Shown here one piece after another: positions 1-16,006 of a stretch of 17,730 bases of DNA. The position numbers and the translations under genes were made by a program. Position 1 is the first letter of the stretch, and each line of letters opens with the position of its first letter. Source of the stretch: a virus; the UHGV virus genome UHGV-1681856; one strand, given 5' to 3'. The notes beneath the pieces were generated by a model that saw only the letters and a program-made list of their open reading frames with translations, did not search any database and was not told the origin of the DNA.

Positions 1-645
1 TGGGTACCCAACAAGCCCAGTTTGCGGCGAAACGACATGAGAGAAGCGAGGACGTGGGATGCCGCGCTTGCACATCGCCACAATGCCGCCATCTATGTAC
101 ATGTCAACATCGCAGGCGTCTGCGAGAAATCTAAGCATTTCAACAGATGAGCCGGATAGATATGGGCTTTCTATTTTTTTGTCATCAATGCCGTAGCTTT
201 CGAAATGAAGACCGTCCATTTCACATATTTCTTTTGCAATATCAACAAGCTTAACCTCGCCATCTTTGCTGAATGCGTTTGATAGCGGGGAGACTTTGTT
301 TAATATTGCCGTAGCACTCTCGATAATAATCGAAATGTCAGGGGCGGCGGAAAAGTCAGGAAGAGCTGTAGTGATATTTCCCTTGAATATATTTGAGCGC
401 ACCCCGTTAATTTCGCAGTCGATAATCAGCATGTTCCGGAGTGCGTATTTCGTCATCCAGCGAACAGATGTTAGGCGGTTTATTTCTTGTATCGAAAGAT
501 TGTAAATCTGAACGCGAGCGGTCGGCATGAGTGCGCCGCCGCCGGTGGATATTGAGCACATCGCAGCTAGATTGCCGTACTCGTGAACATTTCCTTTGGC
601 GTCGGTTGTTGAAATAATAAGTCGTCTATTTGCGTAATTAAGCAT
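1..645 (-). CDS. Putative tail/baseplate protein, 5' partial in window (N-terminal 215 codons; 3' end lies beyond position 1)
   Basis: Minus-strand ATG at 645..643 and an open frame with no stop through position 1 (my own translation; not in the ORF track because it has no in-window stop). Overlaps the stop of the upstream gene by 8 bp, consistent with the operon. Function inferred only from position downstream of the tape measure gene. Confidence 0.4.
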   Translation of the reverse strand, partial: MLNYANRRLIISTTDAKGNVHEYGNLAAMCSISTGGGALMPTARVQIYNLSIQEINRLTSVRWMTKYALRNMLIIDCEINGVRSNIFKGNITTALPDFSAAPDISIIIESATAILNKVSPLSNAFSKDGEVKLVDIAKEICEMDGLHFESYGIDDKKIESPYLSGSSVEMLRFLADACDVDMYIDGGIVAMCKRGIPRPRFSHVVSPQTGLVGYP

Positions 646-961
646 TTTTATTGTCTATTGCGATTAATTTAAAGTCTTTTGATGCAAAATTATCCGAAGT
701 GAGTAAGGTTTCATCATCTTCGCAGAAAAACATAATGTCAAAATCGATAGAGTATGGAAGCCCTATGATCGGGGCGTTTGTCATGCATGGGCGACCAGCG
801 CAAATAAGCTCACCATCCTGAGTGAAAACATCAGCAAAGATTTTGCCATGACGCGCCGTGAGCGTGATTTTTATAGAAAAATCGCCGATTGTTGCTGTAA
901 TTTGCTGCCTGCCGACTTTTTCTATCGATATTTCGTAAAACTCTGCCATTTTATAACCCAA
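638..961 (-). CDS. Hypothetical tail-associated protein (107 aa)
   Basis: ORF packed between neighbours with short overlaps (start overlaps the upstream stop region at 951..961). No recognisable motif; function from synteny only. Confidence 0.4.
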   Translation of the reverse strand: MGYKMAEFYEISIEKVGRQQITATIGDFSIKITLTARHGKIFADVFTQDGELICAGRPCMTNAPIIGLPYSIDFDIMFFCEDDETLLTSDNFASKDFKLIAIDNKNA

Positions 962-1547
962 ATGCCGATTTAACTTTTTTGCCGACGTTGGCTAATTTGC
1001 TTGCAATCTGACTACTCGTCTTTTTTATTCCCTGCTCGGTGTTTAAATCGATGATTTTTGTCTGAACAAGTCTAATCTCTCTAAATGTCAGCGAGCATCT
1101 AATCAGTCGTTCGGTTCCACCGGCGGCTCGAAGGTAGCTATACCCGGTAATGGCGCAATTTGTGTAGACAGTTTCGGGAGTTACTATCGTGAATAAACTT
1201 GTAGAATTTGCAAGTGCTTCAATCTGGCTCAGAAAAGCAGAGCGACCGACCGTGCCGCCGGTCGACTTGATTAAAGACACTGAGACATCAAAGCCGCCGG
1301 ATACTTTGTTCAGACTACCAAACCCACCCGCTTCGATTGGGTACTGCGACACTTGGGAATTTGAAGAGTATTCAACGGTTTCAACGGAATCCACAAGCAG
1401 AAGCGGGATTCCGTTTTGATTGTAGATACCCCATTTTTCGCCGAGTATCAGATTTGTAAGCTGACTGCCCGCGAAGGATAAGATGCTATTCGTTAGCCCA
1501 TTCCCCAGTCCGGGGATTTCGGGGAATCCGATGGATGACCATTTCAT
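951..1547 (-). CDS. Hypothetical tail protein immediately downstream of tape measure (198 aa)
   Basis: ATG overlaps the tape measure stop (ATGA-type 4-bp overlap at 1544..1547), suggesting translational coupling. Position matches the distal-tail/baseplate-initiator slot of contractile-tail phages. Confidence 0.45.
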   Translation of the reverse strand: MKWSSIGFPEIPGLGNGLTNSILSFAGSQLTNLILGEKWGIYNQNGIPLLLVDSVETVEYSSNSQVSQYPIEAGGFGSLNKVSGGFDVSVSLIKSTGGTVGRSAFLSQIEALANSTSLFTIVTPETVYTNCAITGYSYLRAAGGTERLIRCSLTFREIRLVQTKIIDLNTEQGIKKTSSQIASKLANVGKKVKSAFGL

Positions 1548-3220
1548 CTTATTGACCTCGAATGCTGTGCGATGCTAGAGGATAGGGCGCGGCCCATATC
1601 GTTACCAGTTCCAGACATTGTACTTGAGGATGTCGAGACGTTGACGCTATTAATGTTTACCACGTTACCGCCGGCTACAGAAGAGGGTGGAGTGGAGTGG
1701 GATAGGGATGGGATGGAAATGCCGAATTTCGGCAATTTTGCCTCGCCAATCGGAGTTCCGTGAACATGATATGCGTTTCCAGTTCCGAATTTGTATCCAG
1801 TGGCGGCAGATTGTTGCTCTGCCTGTCGAACCCATCTTTTTGTTGCGGCAGATGCCTGCCCAAGGAAATTCGGGTTGGCGTAATGAGTATTCCCGCCGAT
1901 AGTTGACTCCATGCCTGCATTCCTCGCTCTCAAGTGGGCAAGCACGGAAGCGCGAAGGCGCGGAGAGACTCTGGACATCGGGACATTTTGCACCGTTCCG
2001 TAAACCCTCCCACCGCCTTTGAGTCCGGCGGGGTTGTTAATTGCACTGAATGCCCACTTCTGGTTAATAGCGCCCCTGACCGAGCCCTGATACGCAGCAC
2101 GGTTCAGAATTGTATCCACGACGCCACCCACTTGCTTTTGGTACTCAGATTGATTTTTGAGCGGAGTTACTTCCGTTGCCGAGACCCTTAGAATGTCGTC
2201 AATGTCTTGCTGAGACAGAATGAGCTTTCCGTTTTTAAGTCCAGTTGTCCTTCTGTTTCCGTATTGACCATTTGTTGTGCGGGCTGGGATTGCGGACGCA
2301 GATGGGGATGTCGAAGAAACCTTTTCTTTCACCCAGTTTGCGGCTTTTGATGTCGCGTTTCTAATTCCGCCTGTCGCTTTTGACAGTGTATCGTTTTTCT
2401 TCCCGAGAAAGCTATTTATGATTTCTGCAAATGTAGTCAGCGCTGGGATGATTGAGTTGCCGAGCGTAGTGGCCATGCGCTCAAGCTGAATATTCAGCTT
2501 CGCTTTGTTCTCTACAAGCTTTTTCGACTCTTCAATGTCTTTTTCCGATGTCTCGGCGGCGGATTCACTTTCTTTTAATAGTCTTTCGGCCTCACTGCGC
2601 CCGCGGACGAGCATGTTGAAAGTGCCATCGTCAATACCCATGCCTTGCGCGATTTGATACGCTTGTTGACGGTCCATTTTGCTAAACGCATCCGACAAAT
2701 CAAGCATGACGTCATTCAGTTTGCGGGCCTTGCCGTCTGCATCAAGCATTGATACGCCGATTGCATTAAAGAACGGAAGCATTGAGCTGTCGCCCTTCAT
2801 TTGCAAGTCATTCATTGCTTTCGACATCGCGGCTAGAGAGTTTTTTGCAGAATCAGCATTGCCGCCAGCCATCTCCACGGCATAAGACCATTTTTTAAGC
2901 TCGGTGGCCGACACACCGATATTCGCGCTGAAATCACCCGTACTGGCGTTTGCGCTTGCAATCTTCGTTCCAAGAGCAATGAGGCCGGATATAGCCCCGA
3001 CGGCGGCCACACCAACGGCGACCACGCCGCTGGCTAGTGCGCGGGAACCTTTTGCAGCGCTGGCCGCACCGCTACCGATTGAAGAAAACGACTCCTCAAC
3101 CGAGACGGCCTTTTTCTTTGTTCCGTCAAAACTCTTTTCAAGCTTTTTAGCTGACTTGTCGTACTCTTTTGTATCAAGCCCGATTTCTACATATAGTTCG
3201 TCAACCTTATGACTGGACAT
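1544..3220 (-). CDS. Tail tape measure protein (558 aa)
   Basis: Largest ORF of the tail module, directly downstream of the chaperone and its frameshift extension. Low-complexity Ala/Gly/Ser-rich and predicted helical segments with a hydrophobic stretch (VVAVGVAAVGAISGLIALG), typical of tape measure proteins. Confidence 0.7.
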   Translation of the reverse strand: MSSHKVDELYVEIGLDTKEYDKSAKKLEKSFDGTKKKAVSVEESFSSIGSGAASAAKGSRALASGVVAVGVAAVGAISGLIALGTKIASANASTGDFSANIGVSATELKKWSYAVEMAGGNADSAKNSLAAMSKAMNDLQMKGDSSMLPFFNAIGVSMLDADGKARKLNDVMLDLSDAFSKMDRQQAYQIAQGMGIDDGTFNMLVRGRSEAERLLKESESAAETSEKDIEESKKLVENKAKLNIQLERMATTLGNSIIPALTTFAEIINSFLGKKNDTLSKATGGIRNATSKAANWVKEKVSSTSPSASAIPARTTNGQYGNRRTTGLKNGKLILSQQDIDDILRVSATEVTPLKNQSEYQKQVGGVVDTILNRAAYQGSVRGAINQKWAFSAINNPAGLKGGGRVYGTVQNVPMSRVSPRLRASVLAHLRARNAGMESTIGGNTHYANPNFLGQASAATKRWVRQAEQQSAATGYKFGTGNAYHVHGTPIGEAKLPKFGISIPSLSHSTPPSSVAGGNVVNINSVNVSTSSSTMSGTGNDMGRALSSSIAQHSRSIR

Positions 3221-3449
3221 TTGTCAAACTTTCGTAATGTTTATTAAGTAGGTATTCGTTAAACGATGATATACAAACAACATCCCATAAATTAAGCGCA
3301 TCTTCGTATGAATAGACCGTCTGGAGCTCGTGCAGGGTGCACATTCTAGATGCAACAAGGCCGGATATTACTCGCGTCAGATTCTTGTTTTGAATCTGCC
3401 TGCACGGAACTTCAGTTGCGATAATATCCGGCGCTCGACGGCCAATCAG
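3207..3449 (-). CDS. -1 frameshift extension of the tail assembly chaperone (80 codons; G-T-like fusion product of about 227 aa)
   Basis: The -1 frame relative to the chaperone is open for 80 codons from the slippery site to a TAA at 3207..3209, which overlaps the tape measure ATG at 3220. Translated by hand: LIGRRAPDIIATEVPCRQIQNKNL...NKHYESLTNVQS. Confidence 0.6.
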   Translation of the reverse strand: MIGRRAPDIIATEVPCRQIQNKNLTRVISGLVASRMCTLHELQTVYSYEDALNLWDVVCISSFNEYLLNKHYESLTNVQS

Positions 3450-3889
3450 AAATTTATATGAATCATGAATGCATCAAAGCGAAGCTTCCAAAATGTCCGG
3501 AAATCCTCGATGTCGCCCAAATCGTGGCTGATTGGACGAGCGCGGCCGCCGTCGGGAATGAACTGAACGCAACTTAAAAGCTCATCTAGAATCGGGATTG
3601 ATACAGACGATGGAACCATTCCGAAAACATTAAAAGACGCATTCAACAGGCCGATAACACCATCTTGAGGGTCAATTTCTTTAAGTGCCGCTAAGTCGCC
3701 GACACTCTCAATCGCAGTGCCAGTTGATTCACTAATGAAATTCGTCAGGCTGACACCGGAGCTTGCAATGGCGGAAAGCATTCGCATGGCGAGGTGGTCA
3801 AATTTAAAAGCGGGCATTTCAGTGATTAGAAACTTCTTGCCTGCGTCGCGTCCTTTTTCAATAACGACTACTTGTTCTTTGAGTGCCAT
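3446..3889 (-). CDS. Tail assembly chaperone (147 aa), zero-frame product
   Basis: Sits between the tube and tape measure genes, ends with a slippery heptamer, and has an open -1 frame downstream. This matches the lambda G/GT and P2 E/E+E' arrangement. Confidence 0.6.
   Translation of the reverse strand: MALKEQVVVIEKGRDAGKKFLITEMPAFKFDHLAMRMLSAIASSGVSLTNFISESTGTAIESVGDLAALKEIDPQDGVIGLLNASFNVFGMVPSSVSIPILDELLSCVQFIPDGGRARPISHDLGDIEDFRTFWKLRFDAFMIHINF
3449..3455 (-). promoter_or_regulatory. Slippery heptanucleotide A_AAT_TTC (X_XXY_YYZ) for programmed -1 ribosomal frameshifting
   Basis: Minus-strand sequence ...ATA AAT TTC TGA; the heptamer AAATTTC sits immediately before the chaperone stop codon. 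Confidence 0.6.
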
Positions 3890-4382: not shown

Positions 4383-5870
4383 TTACAGAACGTTTGTAGA
4401 AGTTACGTTGATTGCGATAAGCGAGCCGCCATCTGTATACCAGAATTTAATCGGCATAGATTGACGGGATTGTCTAATCTGTGGAGTTGCATCCCCGATG
4501 TGAACATAAAAGCCGTTCGCATAGATCTGAGACGCCGCATCAATTCCGGTATCCGCGTTGATTTGCGCAGCCTGAAGATTTGACAGCTTAACACCGCTTC
4601 TAATTGAACCGAAATTAAGGGCCTCATCAATTACATCTTTCATTGCCGCGCGAATGTAGGCCTTGCCTTCGGAGTTGTACGGGATGGATTTAACATTCAT
4701 CAGCATCTCAACGAGCATCAGTTGGAACTGGGAGTTAATGCGGATTTGGTTGATATAGTTGTCAATCCATTTAAACGAGCCTGAAACTTGGCCTGGGTAG
4801 AAGCTGAGGAATCGGTCGGCCGCCGTTGCCCAAGCCCCGTAAAAGTTGTATCCGTTTTCAATAAGCCTGTTCGCTTCAGATTGGTTTGTAACGTCGGCAG
4901 CTAGGCCGTCTTGGCGTCGGAACGCATAGTTAATCCTGCCGTTTCGCTCCGACCAGTCGACGGAAGCGATGGCGCCGGCGAGGAATGCGGCTTTTTTGTA
5001 CCCCTCATTGCGTTTTGCATAAATCAATGCAACGCCGTTCAGGTTGATGTTTTTAATTTGCGCGCCGAGTGATGAATTTGAACCTGTAAGCGCATCATCG
5101 TTTTCATCCCACAGAATAGTGAGGAATCGCTTATTACTGTCATTTGCCCAGTTGGCGGCAATCAGCTTGACGGGATTTGACAAGTTTACAAGCGGCACGA
5201 GCGAAACCCAGTTCTGATTAGACGCTTTGATGTTGTTCAGAATGTCATAAATCGAAATAGCCGCACGGCCGGGTACGTTAATTGTCGAGCCGAGCGTAAG
5301 GCCGAGATAACCCGATGCGGCGTTTTCAGTGAACGAAATAACTTGACTCGGTCCGGATGCTTTTGTGGAGATAACGAGTTGAGAGGTTGTCTCATTGTAC
5401 GCAGCATTCACATCGAAAGCAGTTGAGATTGCGGAGGCCAAATCCGTGAACGTAGAAATGGCCGCAATCTTGTCGGCGGTAAGTTTTTTTTCAACGCCGG
5501 AAATGCTTGCAATCAAATCTGTTTTTGAGCGTTTTGCATTATCGAGCGAATAAGGGCTCACCTGCGCACTGTAAACGCGAGCGCCGATTTCTTGCGGGTT
5601 GTATTTGTAGAAGTGAATAAGACCGGGCTTCCGAGATGAATTTTCGTACCCATTAAAATACGCCGCCGCCGCCTTGTACTCAATAGAGTTTGTGCCGAAA
5701 ACCGCCGCCACGTCATCAGGATTGGAATAGCTGACTACTTCGTTATCGGGGATAAGTTCGGAATACGATAAAAACATGCCATTAAATGACAATGCATTGC
5801 CACCAGCCGAGAGTACGGCGGGCTGTACATTGACAATCATTGATGCTGGAATAGATTTAAATGTCGCCAT
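4383..5870 (-). CDS. Tail sheath protein (495 aa)
   Basis: Size and position directly upstream of tube, frameshifting chaperone and tape measure match the sheath slot of contractile-tail phages. No motif verified. Confidence 0.5.
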   Translation of the reverse strand: MATFKSIPASMIVNVQPAVLSAGGNALSFNGMFLSYSELIPDNEVVSYSNPDDVAAVFGTNSIEYKAAAAYFNGYENSSRKPGLIHFYKYNPQEIGARVYSAQVSPYSLDNAKRSKTDLIASISGVEKKLTADKIAAISTFTDLASAISTAFDVNAAYNETTSQLVISTKASGPSQVISFTENAASGYLGLTLGSTINVPGRAAISIYDILNNIKASNQNWVSLVPLVNLSNPVKLIAANWANDSNKRFLTILWDENDDALTGSNSSLGAQIKNINLNGVALIYAKRNEGYKKAAFLAGAIASVDWSERNGRINYAFRRQDGLAADVTNQSEANRLIENGYNFYGAWATAADRFLSFYPGQVSGSFKWIDNYINQIRINSQFQLMLVEMLMNVKSIPYNSEGKAYIRAAMKDVIDEALNFGSIRSGVKLSNLQAAQINADTGIDAASQIYANGFYVHIGDATPQIRQSRQSMPIKFWYTDGGSLIAINVTSTNVL

Positions 5871-15252: not shown

Positions 15253-15260
15253 GTCCGGGT

Positions 15261-15320
15261 GTGCCGAAAATTGTCAGCTTGTGCCGTTTTTTTACGGGGT
15301 GAACTGACATTTTTTGTCAC
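15261..15320. repeat. 60-bp palindromic repeat, copy 1 (59/60 identical to copy 2)
   Basis: GTGCCGAAAATTGTCAGCTTGTGCCGTTTTTTTACGGGGTGAACTGACATTTTTTGTCAC. Internal dyad TGTCAG...CTGACA around CCGT-TTTTTT-ACGG, followed by T6. Confidence 0.8.
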
Positions 15321-15343
15321 TATTGTTTACGCACCAATATAAA
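15314..15343 (+). promoter_or_regulatory. Candidate promoter overlapping the 3' end of repeat copy 1
   Basis: -35-like TTGTCA (15314..15319), 18-bp spacer, -10-like TATAAA (15338..15343). Would drive the acidic-protein gene at 15437. Confidence 0.25.
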
Positions 15344-15436: not shown

Positions 15437-15739
15437 ATGGAGAACTTTACAGAAGAAGAGAGCGATAGTGCGGCTTTCAGAGAAATAGAGGAGAAGCTTG
15501 AAATACTTATTAATGAAGGCAAAACCATTGATTATGAAGAGGAGATGAAACTCAAAGAATTGCAAGTGATTGAACTGAGGGGAGATTTGGAGGATATAAG
15601 CATGGAAGCAATACACCATGCTTATATTCAGAATGATGTGAGATATCTGAAAGCGTACGGTAAGGAGAGATACATCGCCAGATGCCGTATCGCCCTTGAC
15701 GCTGCCGAGAGATGCTTACAAGAACTGGAGAATGAATGA
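15437..15739 (+). CDS. Small highly acidic protein (100 aa; about 27 Asp+Glu versus 13 Lys+Arg), unknown function
   Basis: ORF with a good initiation region (AAAGGAAATTTGAAATGG). Predicted helical. Sits in the accessory cassette bounded by terminators. Confidence 0.5.
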   Translation: MENFTEEESDSAAFREIEEKLEILINEGKTIDYEEEMKLKELQVIELRGDLEDISMEAIHHAYIQNDVRYLKAYGKERYIARCRIALDAAERCLQELENE

Positions 15740-15831
15740 TGAAAGAATGGAAACACGCAATCACATTATGCATCCTGATGTTTGGCTTGCCGGTCGCTGC
15801 TGAACTGATACGAATCTACTTTATTAAATAA
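15736..15831 (+). CDS. Putative 31-aa hydrophobic micro-protein (MMKEWKHAITLCILMFGLPVAAELIRIYFIK)
   Basis: ATG overlaps the stop of the acidic-protein ORF (ATGA), with GGAG 5 nt upstream. Hydrophobic core compatible with a single membrane helix. Below the ORF-track size cutoff, so found by hand. Confidence 0.3.
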   Translation: MMKEWKHAITLCILMFGLPVAAELIRIYFIK

Positions 15832-15840
15832 AGTACGGGA

Positions 15841-15863
15841 AGCAGGTTCTTCCTGCTATTTTA
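15841..15863 (+). terminator. Weak terminator-like hairpin
   Basis: Stem AGCAGG / CCTGCT with loop TTCTT, followed by ATTTTA. Confidence 0.3.
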
Positions 15864-16006
15864 ATCAACTTTAAAAGGAAATTTGAAATGGTACCGTATG
15901 GGTGAAGATGAACAAGAAAAGGAGTGAGAACTAATTAAGAAAATACAGAAAGTTTTATAAGTTACTATTTATAAATTTACCATTTAACAAATTAAAGGAT
16001 TTAAAA

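Follow-up and report, generated by a model that had tools for sequence, protein, structure and literature searches.

The left edge of the 17,730-nucleotide stretch of virus genome UHGV-1681856 analysed here (the window) raises the question of what is encoded by the three open reading frames (ORFs) that follow the tape measure protein (TMP) gene at positions 1–1547. The initial annotation described three co-directional ORFs after the tape measure, could name no motif in any of them, and regarded baseplate hub or initiator components as probable. The ORFs and their coordinates were confirmed on the minus strand, and the three genes are very probably the first of a Pam3-type "minimal" myophage baseplate module in an uncultured phage of human oral metagenome assemblies. 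The suggestion of hub or initiator components was borne out by Pfam, PHROG, profile-PDB and Foldseek comparisons, which identify a tube initiator, a predicted plug/adaptor and a hub. All three proteins belong to curated Pfam families with solved structures, and the remark about motifs reflected a lack of tools; the phage itself is sequence-divergent and new. The window features a complete myophage structural module, which includes the small and large terminase, portal, Mu F-like protein, scaffold, capsid, neck proteins, sheath, tube, chaperone and TMP. A block of co-directional minus-strand genes spans from about 14637 down to position 1, and the TMP gene and the three ORFs form its 3′ end:

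1544–3220, minus strand: tape measure protein, 558 amino acids, with PHROG matches
951–1547, minus strand: tube initiator, 198 amino acids, ATG start
638–949, minus strand: predicted plug/adaptor, 103 amino acids from the ATG at 949; the maximal ORF, 638–961, has a TTG start and 107 amino acids
1–645, minus strand: N-terminal part of the hub, 215 codons of 289 amino acids in full, open at the window edge

The TMP and initiator genes meet at an ATGA sequence with a 4-nucleotide overlap, and a GAGG motif is located upstream of the initiator start. The plug and hub genes overlap by 8 nucleotides (ATGCTTAA), and this overlap is also present in Neisseria-type relatives. The start of the small ORF is, judged from sequence comparison, more likely the ATG at 949 (103 amino acids) than the TTG at 961 (107 amino acids), because the ATG is favoured by gene calls on identical contigs and by the alignment with syntenic orthologues. 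With this start the initiator stop codon and the plug start codon are 1 nucleotide apart (TAA A ATG), so the overlapping stops and starts first described for the whole series hold for the TMP/initiator and plug/hub junctions and not for the initiator/plug junction. The three ORFs are real genes and not chance ORFs, since their homologues score above curated Pfam cut-offs and their order is kept in about 50 related loci. Within the region, plus-strand shadow ORFs have no family match, an Rfam search gave no match, no repeats were found beyond a single weak 15-nucleotide inverted pair, and promoter and terminator scans gave nothing above chance, with promoter-like sites at chance level.

Each of the three proteins matches exactly one Pfam family above the curated cut-off. 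Single-sequence searches of the proteins against PDB sequences gave only marginal matches (E 0.01–0.2), in which the correct families are visible and not significant, and profiles were therefore needed. The initial annotation had proposed structure prediction and hidden Markov model (HMM) searches against baseplate families; these matched the initiator and hub families by both routes and the plug family by HMM.

The hub gene runs off the window edge and was completed from an identical metagenome contig (L001, 8661–9530). The 215-residue fragment matches PF22759, E217_GP41 "baseplate hub", with 39.2 bits (cut-off 27), and the full 289-residue protein raises this to 71.6 bits. The PHROG match is phrog_196 "baseplate hub", with E-values of 3.5e-27 for the fragment and 1.8e-46 for the full length. 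The hub profile (A2) matches E217 gp41 (8eon_E, 5.6e-15) and the Pam3 hub gp19 (7yfz_t, 9.5e-11) in the PDB. An AlphaFold2 (AF2) model of the hub returned 8eon_E as the first Foldseek match (2.5e-15), followed by the hubs of Pa193, Bas63 and PhiTE and, at 1e-6 to 1e-8, by VgrG, Mu gp44 (1wru, 9ki1_G) and MuSo2 3cdd; the gp27/VgrG-like hub fold was thus recovered by Foldseek on a modelled homologue. The edge ORF is a gp27/VgrG-like baseplate hub equivalent to Pam3 gp19, E217 gp41 and Pa193 gp42.

The 103-residue protein matches PF22479, Pam3_gp18 "baseplate plug", with 47.8 bits (cut-off 24.2), over residues 9–103 and model positions 2–100 of 101. Its PHROG is phrog_349 "virion structural protein" (1.5e-12). 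A profile built from the plug and its syntenic orthologues (A3) matches Pa193 gp34 (4.9e-8) and E217 gp33 (1.5e-7) in the PDB, and the related loci examined have an orthologue of 90–114 amino acids after the Dit_like gene. On this comparison of sequences and gene order, the 103-residue protein is the predicted baseplate plug/adaptor, equivalent to Pam3 gp18, E217 gp33 and Pa193 gp34.

The 198-residue protein matches PF21821, Dit_like, with 57.0 bits (cut-off 24.2) over residues 52–167, which covers model positions 1–125 of 127. The best PHROG is phrog_1830 (4e-47), a family that carries no function label. The profile of the 198-residue family (A1) matches 7yfz_a, "Pam3 tube initiator gp17", with an E-value of 4.8e-6 and the PhiTE tube initiator with 1.8e-4. 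The AF2 model features strands and a helix at 98–113, with a predicted local distance difference test (pLDDT) score of about 65–86 in the core residues 40–160, or about 75 for the core as a whole; pLDDT values of about 70–85 are found in the cores of the initiator and hub models. The low-confidence initiator model has a tube-protein-like beta-barrel or sandwich core with a flanking helix. Its top Foldseek matches in the PDB are 9b45_S, 8eon_A, 9ndy_A and 7yfz_a, and the top 13 (E < 1e-3) are all baseplate entries, including 7yfz_a and 9cuy_K/L (PhiTE); Pa193 and E217 baseplate chains come first, then Bas63, Pam3 gp17, PhiTE and A-1(L). A BLASTP comparison of the initiator with the tube protein of the same phage detected no sequence similarity, and none of the three proteins has a Pfam match, up to an E-value of 0.1, to a LysM domain of the PBSX XkdP or P2 gpX type. 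The gene comes directly after the TMP gene, and the plug and hub genes follow it. The 198-residue protein is a tube initiator, equivalent to Pam3 gp17, E217 gp37/gp38 and the Pa193 "ripcord" proteins gp38/gp39.

The sequence beyond the window edge was read from metagenome contigs. An identical 198-residue protein is found in four of these, all of which are 100% identical to the window over 2.6–11.5 kb; one contig (L002) is labelled as human oral metagenome and another (L004) was assembled from that same run (ERR589648). Position 1 of the window falls at position 9305 of L001, and the genes located past the edge are:

L001, to 9530: rest of the hub gene, by extension along the identical contig
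L001, 9517–10290: putative spike, 257 amino acids; PF18352 at 20.8 bits, below the 26.1 cut-off, position kept in relatives
L001, after the spike gene: sheath initiator, 119 amino acids (PF10934; phrog_120)
L001, after the sheath initiator gene: Baseplate_J wedge protein, 395 amino acids
L001, after the Baseplate_J gene: second wedge protein, DUF2612/Phage_Wedge1, 217 amino acids
L001, 12501–13253, about 3.2 kb past the window edge: fibre-like protein, 250 amino acids; PHROG tail fibre match and a weak H-type lectin match
L001, after the fibre-like gene: two small ORFs
L002, 10871–13978, about 4.9 kb past the left edge: protein of at least 1036 amino acids; the contig ends inside the gene

The initiator, plug, hub, putative spike, sheath initiator, two wedge proteins and fibre-like protein form a full ordered set at L001 7759–13253. 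The leftward extension along identical contigs therefore leads into baseplate genes, as had been anticipated, and no non-phage gene is adjacent. The initial annotation had also placed the host-specificity genes just past the left edge; the direction was right and the distance too short. The host-range determinants, the fibre genes, are outside the window.

An alignment-driven scan with A1 found relatives at 35–48% protein identity in Neisseria lactamica NS19, a metagenome-assembled genome (MAG) of Conchiformibius, two Snodgrassella genomes and 52 IMG/VR contigs. A scan for related loci with the sheath protein alone found nothing in genome or viral contigs, where the A1 alignment succeeded. In nearly all loci that are long enough, the order is sheath, tube, chaperone, TMP, initiator, plug, hub, putative spike, sheath initiator, wedge, wedge and fibre. 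The nearest relatives of the window phage are prophages of Neisseriaceae, and the relatives in N. lactamica, Conchiformibius and Snodgrassella make oral Neisseriaceae candidate hosts. A near-identity DNA search with positions 1–3300 found no match in GenBank phages or in complete E. coli genomes. Dialects of the Neisseriaceae DNA uptake sequence (DUS) and the Pasteurellaceae uptake signal sequence are not enriched in the whole window, in which a single kingDUS 10-mer is found at 4567; the positive controls are DUS-enriched, the N. lactamica relative (L008) with 9 DUS and the Conchiformibius locus with many simDUS. The uptake motifs therefore point to no host for the window phage.

Several observations weigh against the assignment of these genes to a Pam3-type baseplate module. 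The hub model was built on a homologue that is 95% identical (P0006) and not on the exact protein, and its mean pLDDT is 61 with a template modelling (TM) score of about 0.4 to the PDB matches. The initiator model has a mean pLDDT of 57 and a TM score to PDB matches of only about 0.4, and its C-terminal helix 179–195, the expected plug holder, is predicted with a pLDDT below 50. The alignments given to AF2 were shallow (5–6 sequences), and the models are low in confidence because word-indexed homologue searches gave only 4–5 relatives each. The weaker PHROG labels of the 198-residue protein are "tail fiber" and "endolysin". No other member of the plug alignment diverges as far as the window plug (14–26% identity), and a phmmer search with it against 1.84 billion representatives found only itself; because the plug is divergent and lacks single-sequence relatives, its assignment rests on the Pfam profile and synteny. 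Large repetitive proteins that appeared in the phmmer search were judged spurious.

Four other explanations were considered. The first reads the small ORF, of 103 or 107 amino acids, as a moron, a non-structural cargo gene that by chance lies between initiator and hub, as its lack of single-sequence relatives and the presence of inserted genes at the plug-hub junction of some relatives might suggest. However, the ORF scores above the Pam3_gp18 cut-off, with a match that spans almost the whole protein, and aligns with syntenic orthologues of 90–114 amino acids whose profile matches E217 gp33 and Pa193 gp34. The cargo in the relatives lies after the plug gene and does not replace it, and the small ORF is translationally coupled to the hub by the 8-nucleotide overlap. 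A cargo gene at this position of the window is very unlikely.

The second explanation concerns the 198-residue protein, which could be an enzyme or a receptor-binding component according to its matches to phrog_817 "tail fiber protein" (2.6e-15) and phrog_1517 "endolysin" (8.4e-11). These labels are inherited annotations and not tests, and the best PHROG of the protein, phrog_1830, is without a function label. Catalytic, LysM and fibre domains are absent from the Pfam matches of the protein, whereas the profile and fold searches both return tube-initiator chains, and an endolysin or fibre role is highly improbable. The same protein might be read as a siphophage-style Dit that organises a non-contractile tail tip, since the Pfam family is named Dit_like, the fold is one that Dit and tube proteins have in common, and the Foldseek matches with weak E-values include tube and terminator chains of siphophages. 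However, a full-length sheath gene of the DUF3383/E217_gp31 type (PF11863, 331 bits) is located three genes upstream of the initiator, a sheath initiator and a Baseplate_J wedge protein are encoded downstream, and the best matches by structure and by profile all come from baseplate chains of myophages. The presence of sheath and sheath-initiator genes excludes a Dit role of the siphophage kind, which is scarcely credible. A tailocin or extracellular contractile injection system (eCIS) has hub and initiator folds in common with this module, as pyocin R2, diffocin, eCIS and the type VI secretion system (T6SS) illustrate, but the small and large terminase, portal, Mu F-like protein, scaffold and capsid genes in the same co-directional block of the window exclude it with near certainty.

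The assignment of the three genes to a Pam3-type baseplate module is in line with the comparison to phages of known structure. In Pam3 (PDB 7YFZ; PMC9942802) the gene order is the same, with initiator, plug, hub, spike, sheath initiator, wedge, wedge and fibre encoded by gp17 to gp24. In both phages the single initiator gene is located directly after the tape measure gene, there is no "tube-B" gene, the initiator is of similar size (198 amino acids here and 191 in Pam3), and the initiator and plug fall into the Pfam families Dit_like and Pam3_gp18. Similarity at the sequence level is very low (about 18% identity in Foldseek), and the sampled environments differ: the human oral cavity, with Neisseriaceae prophage relatives, as opposed to a cyanobacterium. 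The hub, with 289 amino acids, is nearer to E217 gp41 (287 amino acids) than to Pam3 gp19 (229 amino acids). The Pseudomonas phages E217 and Pa193 (Pbunavirus; 8EON, 9B45; PMC10329688, PMC11456595) are the source of the strongest PDB matches to the hub and, at about 1e-7, to the plug family. Pfam families named after E217 are also represented elsewhere in the virion module (sheath, gp27, terminator). These two phages have a pair of initiator paralogues ("ripcords") in a 3+3 hetero-hexamer and a tube-B ring, whereas the present phage has one initiator and no tube-B gene. The hub has its fold and its place in the module in common with gp27/VgrG hubs (T4 gp27, Mu gp44, P2 gpD and T6SS VgrG); it differs from them in having no Pfam match to the Phage_GPD or T4 gp27 families, and from VgrG in that it is shorter and the putative spike is a separate gene.

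Structural studies on Pam3 determined that the hub-spike complex forms first and that six gp17 proteins dock on the hub via tube-like beta-barrels and start the tube (PMC9942802). The C-terminal helices of gp17 hold six gp18 plugs, which fix the helical bundle of the wedge core to the hub, and plug release has been proposed to free the hub-spike at contraction (PMC9942802). In E217 the adaptor gp33 and the tail tip are lost at contraction, and the cap that includes hub gp41 remains on the tube (PMC10329688). Adaptor gp34 of Pa193 binds to the hub in a 2:1 ratio (PMC11456595).

By homology with Pam3, E217 and Pa193, the stoichiometry, contacts and release on contraction would be as follows. A trimer of the 289-residue hub would carry the spike, with its tube-like domains giving pseudo-sixfold symmetry. 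Six copies of the 198-residue initiator would form a ring of tube-like beta-barrels on the hub, and this ring would nucleate the polymerisation of the tail tube around the TMP, the C-terminus of which would be expected to dock on the hub or spike. The C-terminal extension of the initiator would reach outward and hold six 103-residue plug monomers. Upon a trigger, the wedge ring would open, the plug and spike would be freed, and the sheath would contract. The expected copy numbers would be six of the 198-residue protein, six of the 103-residue protein and three of the 289-residue hub.

The initiator differs from Pam3 gp17 in an N-terminal stretch of about 40–50 residues outside the Dit_like domain, to which nothing in the aligned part of gp17 corresponds. 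This stretch is strongly conserved within the clade, with invariant G7, P9, P12, W39, N43, Q44 and the G46–L51 run GIPLLL. It is doubtful, though conceivable, that this stretch and the divergent plug represent a lineage-specific docking of the TMP or hub, in a variant inner-baseplate interface.

The result is that three "hypothetical" genes of an uncultured oral-metagenome phage can now be named, which has little significance beyond annotation. The phage joins the minimal-baseplate myophages with atomic models (Pam3, E217/Pa193), and those models are usable for engineering or host-range work.

The plug-hub junction is split by cargo genes of 0.3–1.3 kb in one branch of the relatives (L050–L062 and L007). 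Examples are located at L061 9000–9905 and L007 3039–3701. Besides several small unknown ORFs, these inserts encode a C-5 cytosine DNA methylase (152 bits) in L061 and a Bro-N protein in L007. Such insertions point to the plug-hub junction as a moron insertion slot inside the baseplate operon of related phages. In the Conchiformibius MAG (JASBYJ010000002.1; L005/L009) an initiator homologue, 43% identical, is located alone at the edge of a decayed prophage (L005 10001–10585). This prophage features an integrase, a terminase, a truncated portal and Fic and pRha genes, and it lacks TMP, plug and hub; host housekeeping genes follow directly after the initiator homologue.

The protein of at least 1036 amino acids at the end of the tail module features a metallo-beta-lactamase-fold domain from residue 981 to at least 1035 (PF00753, 35 bits), which is unusual in a fibre-sized tail protein.

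Within the window, the 558-residue ORF upstream of the initiator is the tape measure gene, with matches to phrog_3824 (2e-67) and phrog_2276 "tail length tape measure" (2e-49); its match to the Pfam family PhageMin_Tail (19.5 bits) is below the cut-off. Residues 367–467 of the TMP show a weak match to a SleB-type cell-wall hydrolase (PF07486, Hydrolase_2; E 0.014, 16.4 bits, cut-off 27), and PHROGs related to the TMP are labelled "lytic tail protein" and "tail fiber protein/ lysozyme". This segment may be an embedded peptidoglycan-degrading domain.

The tail assembly chaperone gene (3446–3889, minus strand, phrog_1932) terminates with ATA AAT TTC TGA. The heptamer A_AAT_TTC (3455–3449) is in the X_XXY_YYZ register just before the stop codon, and the −1 frame is open for about 80 further codons, to 3207, overlapping the TMP start. 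The chaperone looks like a textbook case of the G/GT-type programmed −1 frameshift, and this candidate frameshift would explain the apparent 225-nucleotide "gap" before the TMP gene.

At the other end of the window, a 74-nucleotide direct repeat, 93% identical, is found at 15260–15333 and 17653–17726 on the plus strand and contains the palindrome TGACATTTTTTGTCA. The repeats flank a 2.4-kb plus-strand cassette (bracketed 15437–17648) that encodes a 100-residue ORF, a 376-residue YadA-type trimeric autotransporter adhesin and a weak, below-cut-off MazG-like protein. The cassette looks like a phage-borne adhesin moron with putative repeated regulatory or terminator elements, and the head, stalk and anchor domains of the YadA-type adhesin all score above the Pfam cut-offs.

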